Notes under the pieces: model-generated | What the model saw: the letters and a program-made list of their open reading frames with translations, nothing else | Told to the model about the DNA's origin: nothing | The model's database searches: none | Program-made: the position numbers and the translations under genes | Assembly (NCBI GenBank): GCA_038998335.1 | Contig: JAVZHQ010000001.1 | Coordinates: forward strand, 448,001-512,000 | Source: Candidatus Aenigmatarchaeota archaeon | GTDB taxonomy: Archaea; Aenigmatarchaeota; Aenigmatarchaeia; CG10238-14; SCSR01 | Length of the DNA stretch: 64,000 bases | Reading direction: 5' to 3' | Part shown: one piece after another, positions 5,582 through 34,408 of the stretch | Position numbering within the stretch: the first letter of the stretch is position 1 | Layout of the letters: every line of letters begins with the position of its first letter

Positions 5582-7369
5582 CTATTTTAACTCTTCCTTC
5601 TTCCACTTTTCTGGTGTCATTCCAGGCTTTTGCAAAGCTGCACCACCTAGAAAAGTATATTCTTCTTCTGGAACAACTATTAATCCTTTTATTGGGTCGA
5701 AAGCATGCTCCCTTATGATAACTCTTTGTCTTTCAGGAGATGCAATTTCTTGAGTTGCAACTCCAAAAAACTCTGGTTTGTTTATAAGCTCTTCTGGAGG
5801 AGTATCTTTTTGCAAGAAGTCAGCCATAATTCTTATCGCAGTAACACTTCTTTTGAAAGGGTCATCACCACCTCCTCTTTCATATATTAGATAAACAGTG
5901 TGATGCTTTCCCAGGCCAGCTTTTCTTAAAGTCCAAAGAAGCTTGTAAACTTCTACATCTCCAGGCTCAACCTCAATATGATGGTGCAAAGGAGAAGGTT
6001 TTGTAACGTGTAAAGTTAAAATGTATTTACCAATATCTGGAACAAGTTTAATTAGCTCTGAATATTCGTAAAGCGGGTCAACGCCTTGAGTCGAAAGATG
6101 TTCGCTATCTATAATCATAAAAATCTTTTCTGCCCAATCTTTTGTTTTAGGGTCTTTTGCTAATTCTTCTCTTAAAACTTTAATCGCAACATAAATTTGC
6201 TTAGGATGCCATAAAGGATATAAACCAGCATAAGTAGGTGATCTAGCATCAGGGTTTTCTATAGCAATCTTAAATTCTTTAATTATTTTCTCAAAATTCT
6301 TTTTTTCTTCTTCTATTTTGCCAGGAGATAAAACTTTAATCTTTTCTTCTATTTCTTTTGGCAATTCGTTGATAATAAACTCGATTAACTTTTTTATATG
6401 CCCACAAAGATACTTTGCACTAACACAAGCGTAGTAAAACTCCTTGAACTTTCTTTCATCAGGACCAGAAGCCTTTTTTGCTATTTCAAACATCTCATCT
6501 ATATAATCTTTCCCTCTTTCTATATCATCTATAACAGGTGAAAAGGCTCTTGATTTGATTTCAGGAGGAAGCTTTTCTTCTAATCTTTTCAAAACATCTT
6601 CGTAAAGTTTTGCCATTTCTTTCCAAATAGGGTCTTGTGTATAGTAAAGATAGTGAAACATTATTTTGTAAATTACGTTCAAATTCCCCACTTCTTCTAT
6701 AAACCATTTTTTTCCTTCAGCCAAATGCTGCTCAACAGCTTCTCTAATTCTTTTTTCTCTAACTTTGCTTACTTCCTCTAGCTTAAACTTTCCTTCTCTA
6801 ACTTCTTCTTCTATCATCGCCAAGATTTGTCCTACTGTATGGGGCCCGATTATTGCGTCATCATACTCTAAAGGATGCCTGCTTATTCTGCAAAACCATT
6901 TTCTTAAGGGTTCACACTCTTTCAACTTAGGACGAGAAATATGTTCTCCCGATTCGTCAACCATTATAACAACCATCCTTGCTTCAGCATAAGTCAAAAG
7001 CTCAACCCAAGGATAAAGGCAAGAATGAAAATCTATATATTTACAACCACCAAAAATCGCTGAAATAGTTGATTTTCTTAAGTGGTCATCAGCTTCTCTC
7101 CAATGCTCAGCGTCGCCCATTTCAATAGGCACGGTTAAGCTACCGTGAAAAGTTAGCTCTAAATTTTGCTTTTCTGCTATGTAGCGCAACTCTTTTCCCA
7201 TAGAATAATCTATTTCATGTGGAACGTCGCCTGCAATTTCGATAACGTTTGCTCCTCTTGTTAAAGCATAGCCTAACTTTCTAATAGCATTCGCTAACTC
7301 AGGAGCCGCTGCTACTGCGTGTAAGCCAGTTGTTACCCCAACTTTAAACTGTTCTTCCAAAAAAATCAC
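5582..7369 (-). CDS. Xylose isomerase/AP endonuclease 2-like TIM-barrel metalloprotein with large helical insertion
   Basis: Ordered metal-ligand-like motifs LTFH, IDFH, IAIEN, IDSEH, LHV, HHH, IYERG; about 250 aa helical insert between IDFH and IAIEN. Confidence 0.65.
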   Translation of the reverse strand: MIFLEEQFKVGVTTGLHAVAAAPELANAIRKLGYALTRGANVIEIAGDVPHEIDYSMGKELRYIAEKQNLELTFHGSLTVPIEMGDAEHWREADDHLRKSTISAIFGGCKYIDFHSCLYPWVELLTYAEARMVVIMVDESGEHISRPKLKECEPLRKWFCRISRHPLEYDDAIIGPHTVGQILAMIEEEVREGKFKLEEVSKVREKRIREAVEQHLAEGKKWFIEEVGNLNVIYKIMFHYLYYTQDPIWKEMAKLYEDVLKRLEEKLPPEIKSRAFSPVIDDIERGKDYIDEMFEIAKKASGPDERKFKEFYYACVSAKYLCGHIKKLIEFIINELPKEIEEKIKVLSPGKIEEEKKNFEKIIKEFKIAIENPDARSPTYAGLYPLWHPKQIYVAIKVLREELAKDPKTKDWAEKIFMIIDSEHLSTQGVDPLYEYSELIKLVPDIGKYILTLHVTKPSPLHHHIEVEPGDVEVYKLLWTLRKAGLGKHHTVYLIYERGGGDDPFKRSVTAIRIMADFLQKDTPPEELINKPEFFGVATQEIASPERQRVIIREHAFDPIKGLIVVPEEEYTFLGGAALQKPGMTPEKWKKEELK

Positions 7370-9120
7370 CAGTAAACTTCAAAACCTGGAACTTCAAACT
7401 TTGTTTTGAGAAAGTTTGCAACTAAACCAAAATGTCTTCCTGTAATTGTTTGATAAAATTTTGTTAGTCTGTCATTAGGAATAAACTCATAAGGTCCATA
7501 AGCTCTGAAAAAAGCCATTTCAAAACCTAAGCTTCTAAAGAGATTGCTAATACCTTCCTTAATCTTGTTAAATTGCTCGATAAACTTTTTTCTTTGGAGA
7601 TAAGCTTTATCGCTTGCCGAAATAAAAACTTTTGGCTTTTCTTTTTTCTCTTTTTCTCCGTAGATTTCAGGAAACTCTTCTTCCAGCAATTCTTTTATTG
7701 GTTTACCTTCTACAGCCTCGCCTAGCATTTGACTTATATAATTTTCAAGTTGTTTGTCTCTTGCTATTATTTCAAGACAATGACATATTATCAAATTTTG
7801 GGTTTGGGTGTAAGCTTTTAGTGTATCTACCATAATATTTTCAATTTCAGGTCCTGCTGGTGGTATTCTTACAACAGTTCTTGAAATTGGTATATCAAGG
7901 AAAACATAGTAAGGAGAAAAAACCCAGGCTTCTGTCATGCCTAAACCTTTTGTAGATTTTTCAAATTGATCTATAAGCATCTCTCTTGCTTTCAGAAGGT
8001 CTAAAGGATTGAACTTAACGTTATACTCTTTCTCTATTTCTGGGATCATTTTCCTTACTACACTATCTATCGAAGGCTCAACTGGTAAAGCCTTAACATA
8101 ACCGTCAAAATCTTCACCTTTTTTCTCATATATGAATGTTATTTCCTCTTCTGTGAAACCTGCTTTAGCCAAAGAAATCTTGTCAAAACTTTCTCTTACA
8201 ACTTTATACTTTTCTTCAACAGCAAAAGGTTTCCAAGCATATATTCTCATAAAATCTATCGATAAGGCTTGAGCGTCTGGTCTAAAAAATAGTTTAATCA
8301 TTCCTCTTCCTTCAGGACTTGAAAGCGCATCATTTATCATCTTATACCTTGCTATACTTGGCTTAAGCATTTCTTTGTATTCTTCAACAGATTTTCTTCT
8401 TGCCTCAACCAATTGCCTCAAACTTTTATACCTATTCTTAACAGTTTCGCCAAAAAGTCTGTCTCGCCATTCTAAGTAAAGTTTGTTTTTTGTAGCTAGC
8501 ACAACGCCTTCTGCTTCTGAAACGTTAAGCTTTTTTGCTATTTTTTCTGGCTCTGTATCTTCATCGCTTAACTTCATAAAATCTGCTATAATAGTTGGCC
8601 ATCTTATGGCAATTTCTCTTAAAGCAATTCCTGGGCCTGTATGAGCATCTACCAAATCTATAAAAACTGCTTTTAGAGATTGATCACCTTCTTTTACCAA
8701 CTTTTCCCCTTCTTCTTTTTTTCCTTCTTTAATCAGTTTTTTTCCTTTTTCTATTTTTGTATAGTAATCCAAAAACTCTTTGTATTTTCTTAAGTCGTGC
8801 ATTACTAATTCTAAATCAGAGATTGCAGTTGCTACGCTAGCTAAACCAGCTTTTATCGTAGCCTCTAAAGCCTCTTTTTGTCTTAAAGTTAACTCGTAGT
8901 ATTCTCTAAATACAGGAGAAACAAAAATAGATTCTTCTACTTTATACCTTACGAAACCCCATTTTGGTAGCTGGAACATTAAAGAATAGTAGACTCCTGT
9001 GCATCTTCCCAAAGGTGTAGTAAAATCTAGAAGCTCTTCTGCTTCAAAAGGCTTAGCGTTGATTCCTTGCCCTGGTGGAATTTCTGCCGGAGGAAACGGA
9101 CCTTCTGGATATTTTATCAT
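7366..9120 (-). CDS. Hypothetical coiled-coil protein (584 aa)
   Basis: Long ORF with host-like codon usage; GTGA overlap with the downstream gene; heptad-rich N-terminal half. Confidence 0.8.
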   Translation of the reverse strand: MIKYPEGPFPPAEIPPGQGINAKPFEAEELLDFTTPLGRCTGVYYSLMFQLPKWGFVRYKVEESIFVSPVFREYYELTLRQKEALEATIKAGLASVATAISDLELVMHDLRKYKEFLDYYTKIEKGKKLIKEGKKEEGEKLVKEGDQSLKAVFIDLVDAHTGPGIALREIAIRWPTIIADFMKLSDEDTEPEKIAKKLNVSEAEGVVLATKNKLYLEWRDRLFGETVKNRYKSLRQLVEARRKSVEEYKEMLKPSIARYKMINDALSSPEGRGMIKLFFRPDAQALSIDFMRIYAWKPFAVEEKYKVVRESFDKISLAKAGFTEEEITFIYEKKGEDFDGYVKALPVEPSIDSVVRKMIPEIEKEYNVKFNPLDLLKAREMLIDQFEKSTKGLGMTEAWVFSPYYVFLDIPISRTVVRIPPAGPEIENIMVDTLKAYTQTQNLIICHCLEIIARDKQLENYISQMLGEAVEGKPIKELLEEEFPEIYGEKEKKEKPKVFISASDKAYLQRKKFIEQFNKIKEGISNLFRSLGFEMAFFRAYGPYEFIPNDRLTKFYQTITGRHFGLVANFLKTKFEVPGFEVYW

Positions 9121-9521: not shown

Positions 9522-10076
9522 ATGCCTATATTTGCAAGAACTAAGCTTGTTATACATGACGATTGTTTGTCACCAGCTCCTGGAAGCCCTTATCCAGGAA
9601 TGGCCTATACAAAGCTAGAGTACAAAGGACCTAATCCTCAAAAACTTTATCACAAGATAAAAGAACTTTTTATAAGCATTTGGAAAATTGACCCGCATGA
9701 ACTGCAAGAAAGGGATGTTTCTTGGGACAGGAGCAAGGGGGAAGAAAGGTTTAAAGTTACTTTTGATATGGTAAAAGATTTGGACGTTTTCTCTTTCATT
9801 CAAGTGATAGTTGAGCTTAGCGGCTCAGCAAAACCCAGCAAAGAGTTTGGAAGTGAGGGTTCGGCAACAATAAGAATAGAGGGAAGGCTAAGAACAGAAT
9901 ACCCTCAAGATACTCTATGGCAGAGAAGCTTGCTTTATGAGATGTTTAGAGTTTTTTACCATAGAGTAATCTACGAAGGAACAAGGAAGAAATATTTTGA
10001 ACAATGCAGGACAGATTTGATGAAGTTTATCGAGGAAATAAAATCTTTCCTTAATATTCTTAGCAAGTCAAGCTAG
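9522..10076 (+). CDS. Hypothetical protein, paralog of 10084-10608
   Basis: Shared motifs I.DDCL.P, EY.G..P.K.Y, ERD..WD, GRLRTEY. Confidence 0.8.
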   Translation: MPIFARTKLVIHDDCLSPAPGSPYPGMAYTKLEYKGPNPQKLYHKIKELFISIWKIDPHELQERDVSWDRSKGEERFKVTFDMVKDLDVFSFIQVIVELSGSAKPSKEFGSEGSATIRIEGRLRTEYPQDTLWQRSLLYEMFRVFYHRVIYEGTRKKYFEQCRTDLMKFIEEIKSFLNILSKSS

Positions 10077-10083
10077 TGGTTGA

Positions 10084-10608
10084 ATGGTATCCCTAACTTG
10101 GAGGATTGAAGATGATTGCTTAGCACCACAAGCTAGAATAAGTGTTGAGTATGCTGGGAAAGACCCTTTTAAAGCTTATAAAATTGTGAGGGATACTTTA
10201 AGAAAGGTTTTGGAAGTTGAATCAAAAGATTTGTGGGAAAGAGACTTTAGGTGGGATATAAGCTCTGACCCTAGAGGGTTTTTTGTTAGAGTTTATGTGG
10301 ATAAAGGAATAGACGCTAGGTCAAAAGCTTTGATTGAAGTTATAATGCAGGGTGAAATACCTTCTGATCCAAACAAGGAAGGAAGAATAACAATCCAAAT
10401 TGGTGGAAGATTAAGGACAGAATATAAACTTGAAACAGGATTTCAACAGCTTCCAATCTATAGAGGATTGCTTTGGCTTTATCATAAACTTTTTTATAAT
10501 AGAGTAAGAAGAGGGTATCTCGGAATATGTTATGACTGGATTCAAAAGCTTAACTCTGCTTTTAGAGAAGTTCTTGAAATTTCTGAAGAAGCTTTGGGAA
10601 AAACTTAA
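10084..10608 (+). CDS. Hypothetical protein, paralog of 9522-10076
   Basis: Same motifs as the upstream paralog; 7 bp after its stop. Confidence 0.8.
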   Translation: MVSLTWRIEDDCLAPQARISVEYAGKDPFKAYKIVRDTLRKVLEVESKDLWERDFRWDISSDPRGFFVRVYVDKGIDARSKALIEVIMQGEIPSDPNKEGRITIQIGGRLRTEYKLETGFQQLPIYRGLLWLYHKLFYNRVRRGYLGICYDWIQKLNSAFREVLEISEEALGKT

Positions 10609-10950: not shown

Positions 10951-11436
10951 TCAATCTTCTCTGCAGGATTCGCAGAGCCATGTTCCATTTTTTTTCTTCA
11001 AGTTTTCTGCTACTTGTCCACAAGCCTCACAAATCCCTATTTCGTCTAAATTTTCTTGATCTTCGTTGATAATTACTGGAGAAAGGTTTCGAGTTTTTTC
11101 ATGAACGAAAAAACCTGTGCCAAGAAAGTCAAAGTTGAAAAGGTGAGCAAATTTTTTTGCGAGTTTTATGTCTTTATTGAAAATCCACCAAAAGACTTCA
11201 TTAGTGTAGCAGTAAGGGCATAGAATAGTGTTAGACTTTCTTTTACATTTAACGCAAAACTCTTGCTCATCACTCGAAAAAAAAATTTGTAAGGAAAGAT
11301 GAAAAGCTTGGTATTCAGCTAATAAATTGTTGTTTTCGCTTGAAAGCCATCGAGAAATTGTTTGTCTAAGGCAATCTGTACAAAGGAAATTTATTATGGG
11401 CTCAAGGCAAATCCTGCAGATTATTGTCTCCTCCAT
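10951..11436 (-). CDS. Multi-Zn-finger protein (six CxxC pairs)
   Basis: CRIC, CTDC, CVKC, CPYC, CEAC, CESC. Confidence 0.8.
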   Translation of the reverse strand: MEETIICRICLEPIINFLCTDCLRQTISRWLSSENNNLLAEYQAFHLSLQIFFSSDEQEFCVKCKRKSNTILCPYCYTNEVFWWIFNKDIKLAKKFAHLFNFDFLGTGFFVHEKTRNLSPVIINEDQENLDEIGICEACGQVAENLKKKNGTWLCESCRED

Positions 11437-11548: not shown

Positions 11549-12097
11549 ATGAAAATTAAAAATATTTTAGATGATAAAAATCAGTACCTCATTTCACAGC
11601 TTCTAAAAGATGGAAGAATTAAATACACTACACTTGCAAAAGAACTTAAAGTTACACCAGCTGCAATAAAGGAAAGGGTTGAAAGACTTATAGAAAAAAA
11701 GATAATAAAAATAAGCGCTTTAGTTAACTTGCAAAAACTTTATCCTTTAACAGCTTGCATAGGAGTAGAAACTGACGCTGACGGAGTAAACATCCTTATA
11801 AGAAAACTGAGGAATTGCCCTCTCGTTTTAAACTTAATTAAAACTTCTGGAAATCATAATCTAATAGTAAATGTTGTAGGTACTGATATTGCTTTAATAG
11901 ACGAGTTTATAAACAAACAAATAAGGTCTGAGCCTGGGATTAAGCATGTGGAAGTTAACTTAGGGAATACTTTAACCTTGCCAGAATTTGCAAACATAAG
12001 GCTTTTTTACCCAAAAAACAACGAAACTGCACCTTGTGGTTTGAGGTATGATGATGAAACTAGATGCTTAAGATGCCCTGCTTTTTTAAAGGAATGA
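11549..12097 (+). CDS. Lrp/AsnC-family transcription regulator with C-terminal Cys motif
   Basis: L..DGR..Y..LAKEL.VT..AIKERVERL HTH; RAM domain (SGNHNL); tail APCG...CLRCP. Confidence 0.85.
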   Translation: MKIKNILDDKNQYLISQLLKDGRIKYTTLAKELKVTPAAIKERVERLIEKKIIKISALVNLQKLYPLTACIGVETDADGVNILIRKLRNCPLVLNLIKTSGNHNLIVNVVGTDIALIDEFINKQIRSEPGIKHVEVNLGNTLTLPEFANIRLFYPKNNETAPCGLRYDDETRCLRCPAFLKE

Positions 12098-12101
12098 AAT
12101 T

Positions 12102-12611
12102 ATGGAAGAAAAAATAAAAGAGTTAAAAGAGATTGAAGAAAGAGTTTACAAGAATTTTGACGAAAGAGAAAGGATGAAAATGCTGGGAAATATTGCTGGA
12201 AAAATTATATGCACCATGGCCAAGCACTTAGTTAAGGACACAGGCTATAGCGCAACAAAAAAAATAATAGAAAGGGAGTTGAGGGAAATAGGAAAGAGTG
12301 ATGCAGAAAGTATAGTAAAACTTCTTAACACACAGGAAAAAAACGCTGAAACTGCTTCTAAGGCTTTAAAGATTGCTGCCTTAATATTAGGTTTAAAGCT
12401 TGGTATAGTTAACAACCATACCGTAATTGTAGAATGTCCTTATGGAGCAGAAGTTATGAGGTTAAAAGATCCGTTTTTCTGTGCAATATGCCATGAGTAT
12501 TGCAAAGGAATAGTCGAAAAAATTGCTGGCGAGAATTATACTCTTGTCCAAAATTCAAGCTTAACAAAAGGCGATGAATTTTGTTCTTTTGACGTGAAGA
12601 AAAGATTTTAA
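12102..12611 (+). CDS. V4R-like ligand-binding domain protein
   Basis: ECPYG...FCAICHEYCKG...GDEFCSF pattern typical of V4R. Confidence 0.7.
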   Translation: MEEKIKELKEIEERVYKNFDERERMKMLGNIAGKIICTMAKHLVKDTGYSATKKIIERELREIGKSDAESIVKLLNTQEKNAETASKALKIAALILGLKLGIVNNHTVIVECPYGAEVMRLKDPFFCAICHEYCKGIVEKIAGENYTLVQNSSLTKGDEFCSFDVKKRF

Positions 12612-12643
12612 TCTTTAACTGTATCTAATTATTAGGGATAAGC

Positions 12644-13567
12644 TTGGTAGCTCAAAAAAATTTAAAGATTAGTCTTTATAAACTTCCTGACAGCAACTAC
12701 ATTCATAAAACTTTTAAGGAAGTTTGCAGAAAATTAGAGATTAAACCTTCTCAAGAAGATTTGGAAAGGCTAGTGGTTTATGACATGACTGATGGGATGA
12801 GAACAACTACTAAGCTTATAGGAGCTGATTCTTATTTTGACGGTGCAATTTTTGTGCTCAAGCTTGGACATATTTTAAAAGAATTAGGAAGTAAATGCTT
12901 GTACACTAATGTTGCAGAAGAGAAACATGCTCAAAGAAAAAATTGGCCTGACATTCTAGCTGCTCTAAAGCGTTGTCCAAGAATTTATGAGAATTATGCC
13001 ATGGAAAATGATGTTAGACTAATATTCTTGGGAGATTATCGTAAAATGGACCCTTCAGGAGATTTGGGAAGAGAAATAGATATGCTAATGGAAAAAACTG
13101 CTAATAACAAAAGTTTTACTTCTGTCTATCTCTTAGGCTATTCTCCTGAATGGGCAGAATTAAATCGAGAATTATGGGAAGGTTTGCCTGAAATAACAGT
13201 AACAATAAGACACGCGAAGCTAAGGTTTTCTACAGGAATGCAACTTCCTCCTGAAAAGTCAGAAAATACTGAATTTGTTTATGTTCAGCAAGGCTCAGCA
13301 GATTCTACTTGGAAAGATTATCAAAAGATTTGCTTAGCTGGAATTGCTTTAAGGAGCATGCTGATAAACGAGTTGGGAACGCAATATTGGAAGGAATACA
13401 CAAGAAAAGAGGCAGAAATGATAAGAAGGTTAAGAGAGGAAGAGTTGTATTATAGACGCTTTTATCTTTTTGAACCTCATCCTTATTGTGGGTTTACAAA
13501 GTATCCTCCTTTAACTAAAAGAGCTATAATAGGAAGTCCTTTTGGTCCTGAAGAGATTCTTTTTTAA
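12644..13567 (+). CDS. Divergent cis-prenyltransferase-fold enzyme (UppS/Rv3378c-like)
   Basis: DGMRT in place of DGNRR/DGTRR; VRLIFLGDYRK; TANNK...LLGYS; RFSTG. Confidence 0.65.
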   Translation: MVAQKNLKISLYKLPDSNYIHKTFKEVCRKLEIKPSQEDLERLVVYDMTDGMRTTTKLIGADSYFDGAIFVLKLGHILKELGSKCLYTNVAEEKHAQRKNWPDILAALKRCPRIYENYAMENDVRLIFLGDYRKMDPSGDLGREIDMLMEKTANNKSFTSVYLLGYSPEWAELNRELWEGLPEITVTIRHAKLRFSTGMQLPPEKSENTEFVYVQQGSADSTWKDYQKICLAGIALRSMLINELGTQYWKEYTRKEAEMIRRLREEELYYRRFYLFEPHPYCGFTKYPPLTKRAIIGSPFGPEEILF

Positions 13568-14619
13568 ATTAAACCAAACCTTTTGAAGAAATTAGCTTTT
13601 TCTTTCTTTGCTTGAGTTTCAATCATTAAAGCCAAGCCCTGATGAGTTCTTGGGTCAAACTTAAGTTTTTTTATTTCTTTCAAAGCTTTTTCCATTTTTT
13701 GCTTGTAAGGCTCATCCATCTTATCAAGAATTTTTGGGTCTTCTTTTATAAGCCTTCTTACTAGTTCTTTGTTTATTTCTTTAGCGTCTTTGAACTTACA
13801 AATTGCAGTTGTTATTATCGGGTTTGTTTCCAAATTTTCTATATCCTTTTCAATTTTCTGAACGTCGTTTACCCATAATTGTAAACGAGTTCCTCCAACA
13901 GTAAAAAATTCACTTTCTAATTCTTCTAAAACTTTGTTTTTTCCTCCGCTTTCTAAATAAGCTATACGAGCTGCGCATCCTCCCATCAATCCTAACTTCT
14001 CAACAAGAAGCTCCATACAAGCTTGATAACTTGGATACTTTTCTCTTAATCTTTCGAAATCGCCTCGAAGGTAGCACAAATGATCCTCTATATCTTTTTG
14101 TTGACCTTCCATAACTTTTTCTTTTTCTGAAAGATAGATTTGGAAAGAAGAAGGATTTAGCTTTCCAAATCTTTCGTTCACAAGGTTATCTAAATTGTTA
14201 ACTATATTCTTGTAAATTTCATGTTTATGAAGTTTTTCTTGTAAAGTTTTTTCGTCAAGTTTTTTGAAAGCAAGAACTCTTGGGTCATATTCATCATTAT
14301 CTGTATCCATTATATCGCCAAGACCAAAAGCAAGCCTTATTGTTGTCACAACCTCTAAAACATGAGGATTTTTTATAGCTTGCTTAAAGCCAAGATTTGC
14401 GCCACATATGGTTAAAGCTTCTACAGTTCCTGCAGCATAAAGCCTTGTTTGGTAGTTTAAAACTTCATGAATTTCTTCCTCTCTTGTTGGTGAATCTACA
14501 TCAAGATAATAGTTGAGAATGGCTTTTTCCATCCTAGGTTTAATTACTTGGGTATCTAGTTGCATATAAGTAAACAATCTTTTGTAGAGCTGTTTTCCTA
14601 ACCATTCTTTAAATTTCAT
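13564..14619 (-). CDS. Divergent class I isoprenoid synthase (polyprenyl synthase/terpene synthase fold)
   Basis: Asp-rich DIMDTDND, GQQKD, EKLG, LQLWVNDVQKIEKDIE in the order expected for FARM, GQxxD, KT, SARM. Confidence 0.6.
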   Translation of the reverse strand: MKFKEWLGKQLYKRLFTYMQLDTQVIKPRMEKAILNYYLDVDSPTREEEIHEVLNYQTRLYAAGTVEALTICGANLGFKQAIKNPHVLEVVTTIRLAFGLGDIMDTDNDEYDPRVLAFKKLDEKTLQEKLHKHEIYKNIVNNLDNLVNERFGKLNPSSFQIYLSEKEKVMEGQQKDIEDHLCYLRGDFERLREKYPSYQACMELLVEKLGLMGGCAARIAYLESGGKNKVLEELESEFFTVGGTRLQLWVNDVQKIEKDIENLETNPIITTAICKFKDAKEINKELVRRLIKEDPKILDKMDEPYKQKMEKALKEIKKLKFDPRTHQGLALMIETQAKKEKANFFKRFGLI

Positions 14620-14660
14620 AAATTAAAAGAAAATTAGTTAAAGATTTAAGCTTTTTGTAG

Positions 14661-15815
14661 CTATGCTGGAACAATTTTCATCTCAGCCAATATTTTTGCC
14701 GTAGTAACAGAATCAAGAGTATTGCCTTTTACTACATAACGCTCCAACACACCGTTAAACCTTCCTCTTTCTTCTTTTCTTAACCTTAAAGCTTCTTCAG
14801 GTACTTTAACCATTACTGTTGGTTCTATTCCAAGTTGTAAGGAATTAACTGGCATTTGCATGTATTCTAGTTTTTTAAGTAAATCGTACCATTTCACGTT
14901 TTCAACAGGATCCTCTAGTTGTTCGTATAAGTACATGACAAAAGAAGTCCATAAGGCAACTTGATGACCATGACGTGCAGGTTTTGGCGCAAGTCTATCG
15001 GTAGCGTGAGATAAATCATGTTCTGATCCAGAAGCTCCCAAGGTTGAGTTATTTATTATCATTCCTTCTCCACATTTTATACAAGCATCAACGACTTCTG
15101 GTATAACTTTTTCTTTATAAAAAAAAGATGTACTTCCAGAAGGTATGTTTTTCTCTTGCATTTCATCTATTAAACTTAAAAGTTTTTTAGCAGGTTGTAG
15201 GAATAAAGACAGGGCAATTTCTTCTTTGTAAGAATCAGGCTCTTGATATTTCCAATCTTTTACAGCTGTAAGTTTTCCTAGAACATCGCCAATAGCAGCG
15301 GTGATAGAAGAGTAAGGAGCTTCTTGAATTATCTTGAAGGGAATTATTAAGCCTATTGGCGGAGAAACATCTAACGATATAAACTCTTTGTTTTTAATAG
15401 AGCATCGAGGTGAAATCAAACCATCATGAGAAACTGTAGTTGCAAAATGGGTAAAATAAACTCTTTTTTCTGGTTTGCTTGCAAGTTGTACTGCATACTT
15501 AGTTACATCTTCTACTGTTCCACCACCAACACTTAAAACTAGGTTGTATTTTTTTCTTTGAATGAGTTGAGCAATTCTGCTCCCTTCTTCACTTGTCGCA
15601 GACTCAACAGCAAAAGGACCTTCAAGCTTATAACTAGAAATATTTTTACACAAATCTTGAGCAATGCCATAAGTTATTCCTTTTTCTCTTCCGCTTATCA
15701 CTCCTATGCTTCCTTTTGGAATCTCAATTTTATCAAAAAGTTTAGCTACGTTTTCGTAGATATCTTGATTGGGTTTAATCTTAACTATCTTCGGTAGTTT
15801 TGGCTCTTGCATCAT
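14661..15815 (-). CDS. egsA: sn-glycerol-1-phosphate dehydrogenase-like (Fe-ADH/DHQS superfamily)
   Basis: GGGTVEDVTK, TTVSHDGLISP, AIGDVLGKLTAVKDW, SGSEHDLSHA, HGHQVA. Confidence 0.8.
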   Translation of the reverse strand: MMQEPKLPKIVKIKPNQDIYENVAKLFDKIEIPKGSIGVISGREKGITYGIAQDLCKNISSYKLEGPFAVESATSEEGSRIAQLIQRKKYNLVLSVGGGTVEDVTKYAVQLASKPEKRVYFTHFATTVSHDGLISPRCSIKNKEFISLDVSPPIGLIIPFKIIQEAPYSSITAAIGDVLGKLTAVKDWKYQEPDSYKEEIALSLFLQPAKKLLSLIDEMQEKNIPSGSTSFFYKEKVIPEVVDACIKCGEGMIINNSTLGASGSEHDLSHATDRLAPKPARHGHQVALWTSFVMYLYEQLEDPVENVKWYDLLKKLEYMQMPVNSLQLGIEPTVMVKVPEEALRLRKEERGRFNGVLERYVVKGNTLDSVTTAKILAEMKIVPA

Positions 15816-21328: not shown

Positions 21329-21772
21329 TTAAACAACCCTAAAATCTTCTTTAATAGTTGTCAAAACTACATGAGTGTTTGTTCTTTCAACGTTTGGCAT
21401 TGCTAGCAAGCTCTTAACAAAGTCGCTAAGCTCTTGCCTTTTCTTAAACTTGGCTATTATCAAGGCATCTGTCAAACCAGTAATGTCATAGACTGCGCAT
21501 ACATTAGAAAATTTTGCTATTTCCTTTTCAACTTCCAAAAGCTTGCCTTTTGAAACTGTTATTTCTATTATTGCTGTAAGCTCATAACCAATTTTTTCAT
21601 GATCCAAAAGAACTGAATAGCCTTTAATTATCTTCTCGCTTTCTAGAATTTTTACTCGATTTATAATTGTCCCTACGGATAAACCTAAATGCCTTGCTAT
21701 TTCTCTGAAGGAAAGTCTTGAGTTTGAAAGCAAAAGCTTAATTATTTTAACGTCTGTTTTGTCTAGCTCCAT
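21329..21772 (-). CDS. Lrp/AsnC-family transcription regulator
   Basis: LDKTD.KI...L..NSRLSFREIA..LGLS HTH; VYDITG RAM domain; GGTGA SD upstream of ATG 21772. Confidence 0.92.
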   Translation of the reverse strand: MELDKTDVKIIKLLLSNSRLSFREIARHLGLSVGTIINRVKILESEKIIKGYSVLLDHEKIGYELTAIIEITVSKGKLLEVEKEIAKFSNVCAVYDITGLTDALIIAKFKKRQELSDFVKSLLAMPNVERTNTHVVLTTIKEDFRVV

Positions 21773-21787
21773 TTTTTTATTCACCTT

Positions 21788-21834
21788 TTGAATATTTGTT
21801 AATCAAATATAAAAATTTTTGGATTTTTGTTCAA
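21788..21834. promoter_or_regulatory. Putative Lrp-type operator pair in the divergent lrp/glnA promoter
   Basis: Imperfect palindromes TTGAATATTTGTTAA and TTGGATTTTTGTTCAA, about 31 bp apart. Confidence 0.3.
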
Positions 21835-21879
21835 ATTTTTAAGTTAAAACTTATATATTTGTAGTGAGAAAAAAGTAAC

Positions 21880-23250
21880 GTGAAAGAAGAAATTGTAACA
21901 GAAGAGGATATAGTTAAGAAGGTTAAAAGAGAAAAGATCGAAAGAGTTCATTTTCAATTTGTTGATATAGTTGGTAATTTGAAAAGCGTGAGCGTGCCAA
22001 CAAAAACAAAAGAAAACCTGGAAAATTTTAAGGAATATGTAGAAAATGGTTTGGGCTTTGATGGCTCTTCTGTTGAAGGTTTTGTAAGAATTGCAGAAAG
22101 CGATCTAGTTTTAAAGCCGCATATCTCAACTTTCAAAATTTTTCCTTGGAGAATCAACGAAATTAAAGAGGCAAGATTTTTGTGCGAAGTTTTGAGGCCT
22201 GGAGGATTTCCTTTTGAGGGCGACCCGATTTATGTTTTAAAAAATTGTGAGAAAAGACTTGAAGAAAAACTTGGAAAAGGAACAACTCCTAACTTTGCTT
22301 CAGAGATAGAGTTTTTTCTTTTTGAAATGAAAGATGATATTGCAGCCACTCCCCTAAAAACTGACAGGTATGGCTATTTTGATTACGCTCCTCTTCACAA
22401 AACAACTTTAGCGTTAAATAAAGCCATAAACTACATGGAAAACCTAGGCGTGAATGTTGTTAAGGAGCATCATGAAGTTTCTCAAGGACAATATGAAATA
22501 AACTACAAGCATAAACCTGCTTTAGAAGCGGCTATAGATTTTATAAATTACAAGCTTTGCGTCAAGGTTGCAAGTTATGAAAATGAGTTGTTTGCAAGTT
22601 TTATGCCAAAGCCAATTTACGGAATGAACGGCTCAGGAGCCCATACTCATCAAAGCATAATGAGGAATGGAGAAAACCTTTTCTTTGATGAAAAAGATAG
22701 TTATCATCTTTCTGATTTAGCAAGACACTTTCTTGCCGGACAGCTTAAATGTGTAAAAGAAATAGTTGGAATAACTAACCCTACTGTTAATTCTTATAAA
22801 AGACTAGTGGTTGGTTATGAGGCTCCTGTTTATATTTGCTGGGGAAGTAGAAACAGGTCAGCTTTAATAAGAAAACCAGAATATTTTCCTGGAAAGGAGA
22901 AAGAAACTAGACTAGAAGCAAGATGGCCTGACCCTTCGATGAACCCTTTTCTTGGCTATGCGGTAATGCTTGAAGCTGGTTTGTATGGAATAGAAAAAAA
23001 GCTCGAACCTCCTGACCCTGTGGAAGAAGATGTCTATCATTTTGATGATTCTAAACTCAAGAAATTTTATATAGAAACTTTGCCTCAATCCTTAGGAGAG
23101 GCAATGGAGCTAACGAGAAAAAGCAAAATAGTAGAAAAAGCTTTAGGTAGGTTTGTGAAAGAGAAGGTATATGAAATACTTAAAGCTCAGTGGGATAATT
23201 ACAGAAAACAAGTTCATCCTTGGGAATTGGAGAAATACCTAGCTCTTTAA
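21880..23250 (+). CDS. glnA: Glutamine synthetase type I
   Basis: FDGSS, EIEFFLF, HHEV..GQYEI, FMPKP..G.NGSGAHTHQS, NSYKRLV.GYEAP, NRSALIR. Confidence 0.96.
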   Translation: MKEEIVTEEDIVKKVKREKIERVHFQFVDIVGNLKSVSVPTKTKENLENFKEYVENGLGFDGSSVEGFVRIAESDLVLKPHISTFKIFPWRINEIKEARFLCEVLRPGGFPFEGDPIYVLKNCEKRLEEKLGKGTTPNFASEIEFFLFEMKDDIAATPLKTDRYGYFDYAPLHKTTLALNKAINYMENLGVNVVKEHHEVSQGQYEINYKHKPALEAAIDFINYKLCVKVASYENELFASFMPKPIYGMNGSGAHTHQSIMRNGENLFFDEKDSYHLSDLARHFLAGQLKCVKEIVGITNPTVNSYKRLVVGYEAPVYICWGSRNRSALIRKPEYFPGKEKETRLEARWPDPSMNPFLGYAVMLEAGLYGIEKKLEPPDPVEEDVYHFDDSKLKKFYIETLPQSLGEAMELTRKSKIVEKALGRFVKEKVYEILKAQWDNYRKQVHPWELEKYLAL

Positions 23251-31492: not shown

Positions 31493-34408
31493 ATGGCAAT
31501 TAGTGGTAAAAGAGAATCTAAGATTCAAGGAAATTTATTCTATTTATTAAATGAAGTTATAAAAAGGAATCCACGCTTTGACGATGTAGAATTTAAAGAA
31601 GCTGAAATAAATTATCCAGTAAACATAAGTGGCAGAAACTTAGAAGCTGACATAGTGATTTTTGACAAGAATGGTAGATGCTGGCTTGTCATAGAAACTA
31701 AAAGACTAGTTGAAGGAGGATATGATGAAAGATTTGACCCATACAGCCCATATGTTATACAGCAAGCAGCCCAGTACGCCATCGGCCTAGGCGCACCATT
31801 TTTTGCAACCTGTAATGGCGAAGTTTTAGTTCTTTTTGAAACATTTAAAGAGTTTGTACCTCTTCCACAAAGGAAGCAAAAGAGCTACTACCTTAGAAAA
31901 TTTATTCCAGAAGAATTTGCAGAAACATTACTCCAAGACTTAGTTAATCTTAAAAAGGGTATAACTAAATGGCCTCCGTTAGATGAAACTTTTGTAGCTA
32001 GGTTAAAAACATTACATCAATTTATATCAGGACCAATTTTAGAATCTTTGAAGAGAATTTTAGAGACAGATAGCAAATTTAGGAAAATTTATTCAGAATG
32101 GCTTGACAAACAAGGATTTTCTTATAATGAAGAAACTCATAATAAAATTGCTGTAGAAGCTGCTTATTTGCTAATAAACAAGATTCTATTTTACAAAATT
32201 CTCGAAACAAAGTATAAGGATTTACCAAGATTATCAAAAATTTCTCTTTTAGCTAAGGATACATCAAAATTAAAAGATAAATTAGAAGAGTGTTTTAACA
32301 AAGCATTAAAAATTGACTACAAAGCAGTTTTTCAGCCAGGAATATATGACGAAATACCATTACCACAACAAATTATAGAAACACTGAATGAGTTTTTAGA
32401 AGAAGTTTCTACTTATGATTTAGATAAAATCCCAAGCGATATTATAGGAAGAATTTATGAAGGACTTATACCAAAGGAAGAAAGACATAAATTAGGGCAA
32501 TATTACACCCCTCCACCTATATGCGAGTTAATAACTAAAATGTGTATAAATTCTCCGGATGCCTTTGTTTTAGACCCAGGATGTGGCAGTGGTGGATTTT
32601 TAGTTAAATCGTATTACAGAATCTTGGAGCTAATGGGTAAAAAAGAAGCCGATGAAGAAACTCATCAAAAAATTCTTAATCAATTATGGGGAATTGATAT
32701 AAACCAATTTGCGGCTCATCTTTCAGTTATTAATTTGAGTATGAGAAACATAAATGTCAAAAGTGATGTTGTAAACATTTTACCAATTGATTTTTTCAAA
32801 GTATTTCATACACAAAGAACTTTAAAACCTTACAAAGGTCTTACACTAGAAGAGGCAAAAGGCATACATTCTTTACCTTTAACTTTTGATGCTATAGTGT
32901 GTAACCCACCTTATACAAGACAAGAGCAGATTGGAGACAAAAAATATAAAGAATATATAAGAAAAGTTGCTTTAACATTTGACGGAAAGCAAATTAAGAT
33001 GAGTGCTAGAGCAGGAATTTATGCTTTATTTTTCACACATTCTACGCATTTCCTCAAAGAAAGAAGGATGATGGGGTATATAGTTTCGAATTCTTGGCTT
33101 GATGTAGAATTTGGTAGGGATTTACAAAAATTTTTCTTAGATAATTTCAAAATTCATTCAATCATCGAATTTGATAGAAGAGCGTTTGAGGAAGCAGCGA
33201 TAAACACAATAATAATAATATTGGAAAAATTAACTGGAAATGAGAATAAGGAAGAGAGAGATAATAACTTTGTAAAATTTGTTAGGATTAAGAAGCAACT
33301 TACAACAGATGAAATCAAAAGCCTAATAGAAAGAGCCAAAGAGGTGTGTGAAGACGAAACTGCTCGCGTAATTCTTAAAAAACAAGGGGATCTTTACCAA
33401 GAAGAAAAGTGGAGCAAATACTTAAGAGCACCTCCTATATTTTTCGAAATAATTAAGAACCCTAAAATTACAACTTTAAAAAATATAGCAAAAGTTACTG
33501 AAGCTATAAGATGCGGAGCTATACCATTTTTTATTTTATCAAAAGAGCGAGCAATGGAGTGGGGGATAGAAAAGAAATATTTAAAGCCAATTATTACAAG
33601 CCCCAGAAACATTAAAAACATAAAGTTAGAAGAGAATGAAGTAAAAGAATATATTTTTTTAGTTAATGAGCCAAAACAAAAATTAAAAGGTACTAATGCT
33701 TTGGAATATATAAAGTACGGCGAAAATGCTAAAATAAAAATAAAAAGAGGTTCTGAAGCAGGAAAAATAGTGATAGGTTATAATAACTTGCCGTCATTTA
33801 GAAATAAGAAAATTTGGTACAGTTTAGGTGAGAGAAAACCGGCACTCATATATTATCCTAAAACAATTTGGGAGAGGTCATTTGCAGTTTGGAACGTTAT
33901 AGATAGTTTTGCTACTGACAATTTCTGCGAAATACATACAAATAAAAAGGATATACTCGTATTATTAGGAATTTTGAATTCATCCCTAACTGCTTTCTTT
34001 ACAGAGCTTTATGGTAGAACAGCATTGGGAGAAGGGGCATTAGTAGTAAAGGTATACGAGATTGAAAACTTACCTGTTTTAAATCCTTCAAAATTATCAC
34101 AAAAAGAAAAAGAAAGAATTGAAAAAGCATTTATTAAACTCTGTGATGCACAGAAAAACTCTGAAAAGTTAGAGGAAGAAGCTAGAAAAGAGCTGGACGA
34201 TTCTATATTTGATACTTTAGGTTTAAACGAGAAAGAAAGGCAACAAATAATAGAAAGTCTTAACCAATTAAGAGAAATGAGAAAAAGAAGAAAAGAAGTT
34301 GAAATTTTAATCGAACACCCCGAAACTATAAAAGTAGAAAGACAGAAGAGAATAAAAGAATACAAAAAACCAGAAAAAGTTTCTCTTAAGAAATGGTTAG
34401 GTAGTTAA
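31493..34408 (+). CDS. Type IIG restriction-modification enzyme (nuclease + N6-adenine MTase + TRD)
   Basis: ADIVIF...IETK PD-(D/E)xK; LGQYYTP; DPGCGSGGFL; NPPY; LGILNSS and GEGAL in the TRD. Confidence 0.9.
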   Translation: MAISGKRESKIQGNLFYLLNEVIKRNPRFDDVEFKEAEINYPVNISGRNLEADIVIFDKNGRCWLVIETKRLVEGGYDERFDPYSPYVIQQAAQYAIGLGAPFFATCNGEVLVLFETFKEFVPLPQRKQKSYYLRKFIPEEFAETLLQDLVNLKKGITKWPPLDETFVARLKTLHQFISGPILESLKRILETDSKFRKIYSEWLDKQGFSYNEETHNKIAVEAAYLLINKILFYKILETKYKDLPRLSKISLLAKDTSKLKDKLEECFNKALKIDYKAVFQPGIYDEIPLPQQIIETLNEFLEEVSTYDLDKIPSDIIGRIYEGLIPKEERHKLGQYYTPPPICELITKMCINSPDAFVLDPGCGSGGFLVKSYYRILELMGKKEADEETHQKILNQLWGIDINQFAAHLSVINLSMRNINVKSDVVNILPIDFFKVFHTQRTLKPYKGLTLEEAKGIHSLPLTFDAIVCNPPYTRQEQIGDKKYKEYIRKVALTFDGKQIKMSARAGIYALFFTHSTHFLKERRMMGYIVSNSWLDVEFGRDLQKFFLDNFKIHSIIEFDRRAFEEAAINTIIIILEKLTGNENKEERDNNFVKFVRIKKQLTTDEIKSLIERAKEVCEDETARVILKKQGDLYQEEKWSKYLRAPPIFFEIIKNPKITTLKNIAKVTEAIRCGAIPFFILSKERAMEWGIEKKYLKPIITSPRNIKNIKLEENEVKEYIFLVNEPKQKLKGTNALEYIKYGENAKIKIKRGSEAGKIVIGYNNLPSFRNKKIWYSLGERKPALIYYPKTIWERSFAVWNVIDSFATDNFCEIHTNKKDILVLLGILNSSLTAFFTELYGRTALGEGALVVKVYEIENLPVLNPSKLSQKEKERIEKAFIKLCDAQKNSEKLEEEARKELDDSIFDTLGLNEKERQQIIESLNQLREMRKRRKEVEILIEHPETIKVERQKRIKEYKKPEKVSLKKWLGS

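Follow-up and report, generated by a model that had tools for sequence, protein, structure and literature searches.

A candidate non-canonical route to archaeal ether lipids at a five-gene locus of Candidatus Aenigmatarchaeota

The window analysed here, a stretch of 64,000 nucleotides, carries five contiguous genes. The unit on the plus strand opens with a gene for an Lrp/AsnC-type regulator, identified by Pfam (11549..12097). After a gap of 4 nucleotides it is followed by the gene of a small Cys-containing, V4R-like (MetOD1/ATC_hydrolase-like) protein, labelled from sub-threshold Pfam matches (12102..12611), and by a gene for a soluble enzyme of the cis-prenyltransferase fold, here termed P3 (12644..13567). 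The minus strand encodes P4, a soluble enzyme of the trans-prenyl-diphosphate-synthase (class I) fold (13564..14619), and, upstream of it with a gap of 41 nucleotides, a divergent EgsA-like glycerol-1-phosphate (G1P) dehydrogenase (14661..15815), assigned by the model NF002022 and a structure-sequence match. P3 and P4, both assigned from predicted models and fold searches, are convergent and their stop codons overlap by 4 bp (13564-13567). A sequence-only reading had described this arrangement, overlap included, and had placed the DNA in a DPANN-like lineage. All five open reading frames were confirmed, and the nearest homologues carry the name Candidatus Aenigmatarchaeota.

P3 has no Pfam match, PF01255 included; its sole NCBIfam match is isoprenyl-transferase with 17 bits, and similarity to the UPPS profile is marginal (E 0.007). 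The fold emerges from the predicted model (pLDDT 81.7). Foldseek returned as best match Rv3378c of Mycobacterium tuberculosis (E 3.8e-9), an enzyme that transfers a prenyl group to an acceptor other than isopentenyl diphosphate, as PDB entry titles concur. VIA aligned the model with cis-prenyltransferases at Z 17-20 over about 190-240 residues, for example with 7cpm_B (Z 19.1, rmsd 2.8, 210 residues). Rv3378c is absent among the best 50 VIA rows, where ordinary cis-prenyltransferases are present. The divergent cis-prenyltransferase fold proposed earlier is thus borne out by both searches. P3 shares with the UPPS/DHDDS superfamily the Asp-Gly-x-Arg diphosphate loop, since the MTDGxRT loop kept in the P3 family aligns to the DGNRRW loop of UPPS. 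Across 30 distant members 25 columns are invariant, including a G51/R53/T54 loop and an H95/R98 segment that align to cis-prenyltransferase catalytic loops, and the neighbouring D50 is kept in at least 90% of these members. P3 differs from cis-prenyltransferases, however, in the missing PF01255 match, in an identity of just 10-18%, and in a C-terminal extension of some 55 residues, which is conserved and ends K-R...G-P-E. Neither an RXG-like C-terminal motif nor a TM-like segment was found in P3. With 51 archaeal species loci, this unannotated family is widespread in archaea and not the private oddity of one lineage, a point that the earlier reading had missed.

P4 matched no family, and PF00348 remained silent at E 0.1. 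Its predicted model (pLDDT 93.6) aligns over the whole length with trans-polyprenyl diphosphate synthases (Z 25.0, rmsd 3.4, 294 residues) and Foldseek agrees, in line with the divergent class I isoprenoid synthase fold first suggested from the sequence. Identity to the trans-isoprenyl diphosphate synthases (PF00348, with products from GGPP to decaprenyl) is 10-17%, and the nearest structures are chain-elongating synthases. Two acidic motifs are conserved, D102xxD105xDxDxxD112 and N251-D252...D259. The acidic cluster lies at the helix end where the first Asp-rich motif sits in trans-isoprenyl diphosphate synthases, whereas the second motif (DDxxD) is replaced by N-D-V-x-K...D. The P4 family is tiny, with 24 representatives among 1.84 billion proteins and a Pfam family in none of them.

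The EgsA-like protein is the only one of its kind in the genome. Its label holds, as it matches the solved G1P dehydrogenase of M. jannaschii with E 9e-21 over an alignment spanning the GGG, S-x-DG-x-x-SP, GD, SGSEH and HG-x-Q stretches, though the NF002022 score of 173 bits is far below the cut-off of 413. In archaeal lipids the first ether bond is made by the PcrB family (PF01884), a TIM-barrel geranylgeranylglyceryl phosphate (GGGP) synthase. A search of the genome, which is small and 90.4% complete, found neither PcrB, UbiA and CarS nor HMG-CoA reductase, CDP-alcohol transferase and GHMP kinase. The rest of the genome, to which the sequence-only reading had pointed, therefore lacks recognizable GGGP synthase, DGGGP synthase and mevalonate genes. 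It contains an IdsA/GGPP-synthase-like gene, an isopentenyl-phosphate-kinase-like (IPK-like) gene, a geranylgeranyl reductase and a complete canonical UppS (213 bits), so that we discarded P3 as an ordinary polyprenyl synthase. PcrB and UbiA are each found in 0/4 genomes of this genus. The genus is also without CarS and head-group enzymes, and the pathway has no known continuation there.

P3 is phyletically complementary to PcrB, and the two are almost never found together. Among 201 Aenigmatarchaeota genomes, 12 of the 13 P3 holders are without PcrB, and 126/188 non-holders possess it. The PcrB-less genomes of families f15 (15/16), f19 (21/23), f7 (1/3) and f9 (1/2) are exactly the P3 holders. 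In 121 Methanosarcinales genomes PcrB is missing in 13/14 P3 holders versus 7/107 non-holders, and these holders may represent a single event. Two sets of spot checks on P3 holders gave PcrB above cut-off in 0/5 and 0/5, and 22 further holders yielded one full PcrB and one marginal match; these sets overlap in part, and the genomes counted throughout include incomplete MAGs and kin that are not independent. The exclusion is not absolute, since full PcrB and P3 occur together in three genomes (G135, G239 and G545). CarS is present in the P3 holders Methanoperedens, Bathycorpusculum, Altiarchaeales SM1 and Hecatella and in seven P3-holding Aenigmatarchaeota, indicating that those genomes need a GGGP synthase. 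The weak PcrB matches in P3 holders were rejected for this role because they are TrpC, HisA/F and Fae-Hps, and no other candidate for the step turned up in these genomes.

The gene neighbourhood of P3, counted in 50 loci from diverse archaea, points in the same direction and lies among ether-lipid genes, not glycosyl-carrier genes. A UbiA gene is present in 29/50 loci, in 20 of them directly adjacent (within 100 nt), and the best NCBIfam model for 9/9 UbiA neighbours tested is DGGGPS or PRK12884 (181-252 bits). A G1P dehydrogenase gene occurs in nine loci; in L051 and L052 it shares the strand of P3, overlaps it and scores 458-460 bits against the cut-off of 413, and in Aenigmatarchaeota it is found beside or near P3. 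Hence the co-occurrence of such genes elsewhere, on which the original proposal depended, exists for P3 in other archaea. Some P3-UbiA pairs stand tail-to-tail with a 4-bp stop overlap (L024, L025), so that P4 occupies here the very slot of UbiA. P3 adjoins P4 in 9/9 P4 loci; four lineages have both genes on one strand, P3 first and P4 next, as in an operon. Among the 13 Aenigmatarchaeota genomes that hold P3, P4 is present in 4/4 genomes of the present genus, which are UbiA-less, and in 0/9 others, all with UbiA; the four P4-positive genomes thus represent one genus. Hecatella, with P3 followed by P4, has four UbiA genes, namely those for heme o synthase, a MenA-like and a DPPR-like protein and one weak match of 69-87 bits. 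This weak UbiA could still be the DGGGP synthase of Hecatella.

On balance, the locus appears to encode a non-canonical core route to archaeal ether lipids. Such a prenyl-glycerol-phosphate ether route in a DPANN genome without the two standard synthases was already the central proposal of the sequence-only reading, and it gains support from the agreement of complementarity and gene links. The EgsA-like enzyme would, judged by homology, convert dihydroxyacetone phosphate to sn-glycerol-1-phosphate. Prenyl units would come from the IdsA-like synthase and the IPK-like gene product; as the mevalonate pathway is absent, C5 precursors must be imported. P3 may bind geranylgeranyl diphosphate and Mg2+ in the donor site via its retained Asp/Arg diphosphate-binding loop, hold G1P where isopentenyl diphosphate normally sits, and prenylate the glycerol hydroxyl, yielding GGGP in place of the absent TIM-barrel enzyme. 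Based on phyletic complementarity and gene neighbourhood, we consider it likely that P3 is a GGGP synthase non-homologous to PcrB that shares with it the reaction, the pathway position and, as gene neighbours, G1P dehydrogenase and DGGGP synthase, and that its family probably stands in for PcrB in many other archaea. PcrB is a (beta-alpha)8 barrel, while P3 has the cis-prenyltransferase alpha/beta fold and no sequence similarity between them was found. A cis-prenyltransferase active site able to O-prenylate glycerol is that of MM_0014 from M. mazei, which does so in vitro, an activity judged non-physiological by the authors who described it (PMC8131916); it takes the place of MA1831, which had been named as precedent. 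P4 would most likely perform, in this genus, the step of the missing membrane-integral UbiA-type DGGGP synthase, and from its position and phyletic pattern we tentatively suggest that it forms the second ether bond. It differs from that enzyme in being soluble, with a trans-isoprenyl diphosphate synthase fold and no hydrophobic segments found, and we know of no precedent for a soluble enzyme in this step. Thus, two unrelated enzymes of the locus probably attach isoprenoid chains to glycerol phosphate in a genome without the standard pair, and geranylgeranyl reductase could saturate the chains. We found no published account of a P3/P4 route in the literature.

Alternatively, P4 could be a dedicated donor synthase (C20 or other length) that makes the prenyl diphosphate for P3 as GGGP synthase analogue, the genus making just a monoether or receiving the second chain from its host. 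Its nearest structures are chain-elongating, so that donor supply fits as well as ether formation, and the acidic cluster at the first Asp-rich motif, the P3-then-P4 order in four lineages and a pathway truncated anyway by the lack of CarS and head-group enzymes agree with this role. However, an IdsA/GGPP-synthase-like gene is already present in the genome, P4 has N-D-V-x-K instead of the second Asp-rich motif and gives no match to PF00348, and its occurrence coincides with the absence or weakness of a DGGGPS-type UbiA, whose tail-to-tail slot in other loci it takes. We therefore regard a donor synthase as possible, if rather unlikely.

That P3 makes another isoprenoid (such as an irregular prenyl diphosphate, hydrolysed terpenol or Rv3378c-type terpenyl-nucleoside) used by the UbiA neighbour, with a further enzyme covering the loss of PcrB, seems improbable. 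The top Foldseek matches are Rv3378c chains, P3 and PcrB coexist in three genomes, and cis-prenyltransferase relatives perform non-head-to-tail and hydrolytic reactions (PMC8131916). Yet the exact coincidence of P3 with the PcrB-less members of PcrB-rich families and the operon overlap with G1P dehydrogenase would stay unexplained, no alternative candidate for the step is at hand, and in VIA the ordinary cis-prenyltransferases, not Rv3378c, are among the best 50 rows. The terpenyl-nucleoside signal once considered has the Rv3378c fold match as the single observation in its favour. Highest in VIA are chains of the human heteromeric cis-prenyltransferase complex and the P3 sequence is very divergent, which might suggest a non-catalytic or regulatory subunit in the manner of NgBR/Nus1 in ordinary polyprenyl (glycosyl-carrier) metabolism. 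The invariant columns include residues that align with catalytic loops, however, a complete UppS is encoded separately, and glycosyl-carrier synthesis explains neither the links to G1P dehydrogenase and DGGGP synthase nor the complementarity with PcrB, making this role very improbable.

The regulator and the V4R-like protein had been read as an Lrp-V4R pair. The Lrp part stands, with AsnC_trans_reg (38.3 bits), HTH_AsnC-type (34.8 bits) and HTH_24 all above the Pfam cut-offs. V4R is the weakest label of the locus: the protein has no match to PF02830 and zero NCBIfam matches, and its relatives in Pfam are sub-threshold (MetOD1 with 21.1 bits, below the cut-off of 23.8, and likewise DUF6144 and ATC_hydrolase). 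Look-alike clusters in the Atlas are labelled ATC_hydrolase, MetOD1 or V4R (scores 0.90-0.91), and the protein is possibly a ligand-binding partner of the regulator. The pair is no general part of the locus, since the Lrp gene adjoins P3 in close kin only (L004-L007 and L056), and conservation of the V4R-like gene is likewise limited to close kin. The pair, which lies upstream of P3, probably controls it in the genus of this genome only.

GGGP synthase is regarded as a universal hallmark of the archaeal membrane and is used both for scoring lipid autonomy in MAGs and for reconstructing how the lipid divide arose. The locus described here suggests a known pathway in which one step, and perhaps a second, is performed by unrelated enzyme families. 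All five ORFs listed in the sequence-only reading are present in the window where it had placed them. On the forward strand, an Lrp/AsnC regulator (11549-12097) is followed after 4 nt by a gene for a 169 aa V4R-like protein (12102-12611) and after 32 nt by the gene for P3 (12644-13567, 307 aa), a cis-prenyltransferase-fold protein. P4 (13564-14619, 351 aa), a trans-prenyl-diphosphate-synthase-fold protein encoded on the reverse strand, converges on P3 with the described 4 bp overlap of the stop codons, and an EgsA-like gene (14661-15815, 384 aa) lies 41 nt upstream of P4, also on the reverse strand. The label of the regulator holds, with Pfam matches over cut-off for the HTH (PF13404, 34.8 bits, cut-off 27) and for the AsnC ligand-binding domain (PF01037, 38.3 bits, cut-off 25). 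Naming the 169 aa protein V4R is reasonable and is not established: the Pfam search did not match PF02830 and gave sub-threshold matches to MetOD1 (21.1 bits, cut-off 23.8), DUF6144 and ATC_hydrolase, and the look-alike clusters in the atlas bear ATC_hydrolase, MetOD1 or V4R, the latter in 43-52% of the members of part of the neighbor clusters (score 0.90). The Lrp/V4R-like pair is found ahead of P3 in close kin only.

The folds guessed from the sequence, cis-prenyltransferase (cis-PT) for P3 and class I synthase for P4, are borne out by the structural models. For P3, a model built on a 10-sequence alignment (pLDDT 81.7) has its best Foldseek matches to chains of Rv3378c (E 3.8e-9), with UPPS and neryl-PP synthases next in rank and a probability of 1.00 to Rv3378c/UPPS. 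VIA places cis-PTs at Z 17-20, among them 7cpm_B (Z 19.1, rmsd 2.8, 210 residues) and E. coli UPPS 1x06 (Z 18.6, rmsd 2.3, 195 residues); the superposition covers model residues 15-252 and the alignments stop near residue 252-270. By its structure P3 thus belongs to the cis-PT superfamily, yet it fails the sequence models of that superfamily. A Pfam search at E 0.1 was empty, PF01255 included, the best NCBIfam match is isoprenyl transferase (17.4 bits, cut-off 417), and the family profile reaches PDB UPPS at E 0.007. An alignment of 30 diverse members has 25 invariant columns. These include G51, R53 and T54 of the loop M48-T49-D50-G51-x-R53-T54, in which at least 90% of the 30 sequences retain D50 and which HMMER aligns to MDGNRRWA of the solved UPPS 3ugs, as well as H95 and R98, within a segment that aligns to the cis-PT catalytic loop. 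At the C-terminus, K292, G301, P302 and E303 are invariant and R293 is nearly so; this tail, compared with the RXG of homodimeric cis-PTs, lies beyond the structural superposition. PcrB, the canonical GGGP synthase, is a TIM-barrel protein, whereas P3 has a different fold and no match to PF01884 and therefore falls outside the PcrB family. Rather, P3 appears to fill the role of PcrB as a functional analogue.

The loops of UPPS, the DGNRRW-type loop and the catalytic loop, bind diphosphate and Mg2+. In the cis-PT active site, a donor site takes up the allylic diphosphate together with Mg2+, and basic residues of an acceptor site grip the diphosphate of IPP. By analogy, GGPP would occupy the donor site of P3 and the phosphate of glycerol-1-phosphate the acceptor site, so that the C3 hydroxyl could attack C1 of GGPP with departure of the diphosphate. 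Candidates for activating this hydroxyl are the invariant H95 and E93, which is nearly invariant. A precedent exists in the M. mazei cis-PT MM_0014: Okada et al. 2021 (PMC8131916) describe O-prenylglycerol in crystals of the enzyme, confirm O-prenylation of small alcohols, state that no O-prenylating enzyme of the cis-PT family had been known until then and judge the reaction unlikely to be physiological. This precedent makes the chemistry feasible in principle, and if P3 does catalyze O-prenylation of a glycerol phosphate, the reaction would join the physiological repertoire of the cis-PT fold. The terpenyl-nucleoside that the sequence-only reading had offered as another possible product has low odds.

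A role of P3 as GGGP synthase is supported by its distribution. Counting E below 1e-80 as presence of P3 and a score over cut-off as presence of PcrB, P3 was found in 13 and PcrB in 127 genomes of an even sample of 201 Aenigmatarchaeota: 12 genomes have P3 only, 126 PcrB only, one both (G135) and 62 neither, counts that come, as do those below, from related and non-independent genomes including incomplete MAGs. The replacement pattern covers several families. PcrB is present in 15 of 16 genomes of family f15, in 21 of 23 of f19, in one of three of f7 and in one of two of f9, and the PcrB-less genomes (G067; G187 and G206; G049 and G125; G013, respectively) are all P3 holders. Likewise, 121 Methanosarcinales comprise 14 genomes with P3 and 101 with PcrB (13 P3 only, 100 PcrB only, one with both, G239, and seven with neither); these P3 holders may represent a single clade. 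In 121 Bathyarchaeia, P3 occurs only in the two seeded genomes. PcrB was found in none of five P3 holders in one spot check and scored over cut-off in none of five in another (Methanoperedens nitroreducens with 3.2 Mb, Bathycorpusculum, Altiarchaeales SM1, a Micrarchaeote and Hecatella), while 22 further P3 holders included one with a full PcrB (G545, locus L046) and one with a marginal partial match; these sets overlap, with genomes recurring and three of the 22 already part of the Methanosarcinales sample, and their counts are not additive. CarS consumes DGGGP. Methanoperedens, Bathycorpusculum, SM1 and Hecatella all have it, as do seven of the 12 P3-holding Aenigmatarchaeota tested, which implies that these organisms need a GGGP synthase. 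Weak PcrB matches of 19-25 bits in P3 holders were considered as cryptic GGGPS and rejected, since they are TrpC, HisA/HisF and Fae-Hps. A full-length PcrB in addition to P3 was observed in three genomes (G135, G239 and G545), and in G239 it scores 128 bits compared to the roughly 200 bits usual in Methanosarcinales. Such genomes may reflect transitional states, contamination or incomplete redundancy of the two enzymes.

The gene neighborhood of P3 points in the same direction as its distribution. A word-index protein search returned only nine relatives, with Hydrothermarchaeales represented among them, whereas scanning one genome per species with a pattern gave 51 loci in Aenigmatarchaeota, Bathyarchaeia (Bathycorpusculum and Hecatella included), Methanoperedens, Argoarchaeum/Ethanoperedens, Altiarchaeales SM1, Thermoplasmatota, Micrarchaeota and others. 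When neighboring ORFs were clustered for the 50 loci holding a P3 ORF, a UbiA-family gene of about 278 aa was found in 29, and in 20 of the 50 it lies within 100 nt of P3. Its orientation varies, from same-strand after P3 to tail-to-tail, and in L024 and L025 the two genes share a 4 bp stop overlap exactly like that of P4 and P3 in the window. In nine out of nine cases tested, this UbiA is best matched in NCBIfam by NF009521, the model for DGGGP synthase, or by the sister model PRK12884, with 181-252 bits on NF009521 and thus below the equivalog cut-off of 296. Nine P3 loci, all Aenigmatarchaeota-like, contain a gene for glycerol-1-phosphate dehydrogenase (G1PDH); in L051 and L052, where it is on the same strand as P3, it overlaps the P3 start and scores over cut-off (458-460 bits), and in L050 the order is G1PDH, P3, DGGGPS. 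In the P3 tree, the Aenigmatarchaeota sequences split into three separate clades, which points to repeated acquisition. The P3 of the Micrarchaeota locus L044, which is adjoined by a DGGGPS-type UbiA, nests among those of Thermoplasmatota (support 90/90). This placement is reminiscent of the mevalonate-pathway genes that, according to an earlier study (PMC8975820), were transferred from Thermoplasmatales hosts. Other neighbors of P3 also occur. In the Methanoperedenaceae loci (L018-L023, L026, L027, L031, L033, L038, L040), an HGSNAT_cat-type membrane acyltransferase is encoded upstream of and divergent from P3 (13 loci), in most cases preceded by a gene for an NmrA/NAD(P)-binding protein (10 loci), and in Hecatella a tandem pair of zinc-type alcohol dehydrogenase genes (L008:5839-6897) lies directly upstream of P3-P4 on the same strand.

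The sequence-only reading had proposed a non-canonical route to ether lipids, and the gene content of the organism can be compared with this idea. Close homologues of its proteins bear the name Candidatus Aenigmatarchaeota. In the 1.01 Mb assembly, which is 90.4% complete, PcrB/GGGPS, UbiA, CarS, HMG-CoA reductase, CDP-alcohol phosphatidyltransferase and GHMP kinases were not found. Thus, GGGPS, a DGGGPS-type UbiA and the mevalonate genes are missing from the assembly, and a canonical UppS (213 bits) is present, as is an IdsA/GGPP-synthase-like gene. Outside the window, at G000:C1:660858-663390 (L066, L001), an isoprenoid cluster combines an IPK-like gene (274 aa; NF040647, 115.9 bits, cut-off 120), a convergent gene of the geranylgeranyl reductase family (345 aa; TIGR02032, 215 bits, cut-off 158.8) and, next to it, UppS. 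With HMG-CoA reductase and GHMP kinases both absent, the C5 units must be external, and the cluster therefore looks like salvage of C5 phosphates and not de novo synthesis. The glycerol-1-phosphate backbone would be accounted for by the EgsA-like gene, the only one of its kind in the genome. Its product matches the G1PDH model NF002022 at 173 bits, below the equivalog cut-off of 413 but as top family by a wide margin, and aligns with the solved M. jannaschii G1PDH (4rgq/4rfl) at E 9e-21. The stretches GGG, SxDGxxSP, GD, SGSEH..SHA.D and HGxQ, which presumably carry the metal and nucleotide ligands, are in register between the two. Taken together, the inventory describes an organism that has retained the building and saturation of prenyl chains as well as the glycerol-1-phosphate backbone and is devoid of both canonical ether-forming enzymes and of the mevalonate pathway. 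In this genus, searches for CarS and head-group transferases likewise found none.

What P4 contributes is a matter of two readings. Its model (pLDDT 93.6) aligns along the whole chain with 4jyx_C in VIA (Z 25.0, rmsd 3.4, 294 of 351 residues); all 50 VIA matches listed are prenyl diphosphate synthases, and Foldseek likewise returns trans-polyprenyl diphosphate synthases. An acidic cluster, D102-x-x-D105-x-D107-x-D109-x-x-D112, occupies the site of the first Asp-rich motif of trans-IPPS, but the second site reads N251-D252-V-x-K...D259 and not DDxxD. By its structure P4 hence belongs to the class I/trans-IPPS superfamily, but it lacks the second motif and fails the sequence model; neither PF00348 nor PF01040 was matched in the Pfam search. 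These nearest structures fit a role as prenyl-donor synthase for P3, a reading that we consider possible but rather less likely than not. Position and phyletic pattern fit the second ether bond being made by P4 instead of by DGGGPS, which we regard as a real possibility, at somewhat less than even chances. P3 adjoins P4 in all nine P4 loci with flanking DNA, and the pair recurs outside the window. The two genes are convergent in the window's genus or its close kin (L004-L007, L056), and P3 is immediately upstream of P4 on the same strand in Hecatella (L008/L055) and in the metagenome loci L057, L058 and L059 (47-53% identity); P0004/P0022 and P0005/P0015 are two further putative pairs on short contigs that, going by their length, are shared. 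The 13 P3-holding Aenigmatarchaeota fall into two sets, with P4 but no UbiA in the four genomes of this genus and UbiA but no P4 in the nine others. P4 was found only in Hecatella among 201 Bathyarchaeia genomes, and the four UbiA genes of Hecatella encode a heme o synthase (259 bits), a MenA-like protein, a decaprenyl-phosphate phosphoribosyltransferase-like protein and one weak 285 aa protein with 69-87 bits on DGGGPS-type models. As a candidate second prenyl transferase, P4 would differ from the membrane-integral UbiA/DGGGP synthase in lacking hydrophobic helices as well as PF01040: P3 and P4 have no membrane-like hydrophobic window, and in P4 no 19-residue window exceeds a hydropathy of 1.6. 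The family is small, with 24 representatives at E <=0.001 among 1.84 billion proteins, seven of them below 1e-30; Pfam families were matched in 0 of 21 relatives scanned, and every named member is a hypothetical protein. In L057 (4394-5789), P3-P4 is followed on the same strand by genes for a 267 aa protein without Pfam family and for a 182 aa cytidylyltransferase-like protein (PF01467, 74 bits), which may be a head-group activation step tied to the pair.

In its widest form, the proposal would make P3 and P4 a complete, soluble two-enzyme replacement for GGGPS and DGGGPS, and would cast P3 by itself as the genuine GGGP synthase in Methanoperedens, GoM-Arc1, several of the Bathyarchaeia, Altiarchaeales SM1, some of the Thermoplasmatota, Hydrothermarchaeales and many DPANN. 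Taken as a whole this seems unlikely to us, and it is offered tentatively. If it were true, the first committed step on the archaeal side of the lipid divide would have been invented at least twice, the P3 gene would have been transferred between lineages, including into Micrarchaeota from the host lineage, and certain DPANN now counted as lipid auxotrophs would assemble lipid cores themselves out of C5 units taken up from outside. A second, unrelated enzyme for the GGGP synthase step would by itself account for the PcrB-less methane- and ethane-oxidizing Methanoperedenaceae and further lipid-making archaea, and it would alter the way in which DPANN genomes are judged to miss lipid synthesis. 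In their available text, reviews of 2022 (PMC9385802) and 2026 (PMC13691511) name only the TIM-barrel GGGP synthase. The literature outside subscription journals and supplements yielded no link of GGGP synthesis to a cis-PT-fold enzyme and no remark on the absence of GGGPS in Methanoperedens.

Several further features of the window were observed. Two adjoining paralogous ORFs without Pfam family (9522-10076 and 10084-10608; 184 and 174 aa) are kept in close kin, with about 30% identity to each other's orthologues in L056, and so is a 161 aa Cys-rich zinc-ribbon-like protein (10951-11436) that has sub-threshold Pfam matches only and is encoded divergently from the Lrp gene. Two big neighboring ORFs on the reverse strand (5582-7366 and 7366-9120; 594 and 584 aa) likewise have no Pfam family. 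At 21329-23247, a second Lrp/AsnC regulator (150 aa) is divergent from a glutamine synthetase gene and followed by GatD/GatE-like genes, and a 971 aa Eco57I/MmeI-type restriction-modification methylase fusion is encoded at 31493-34405.
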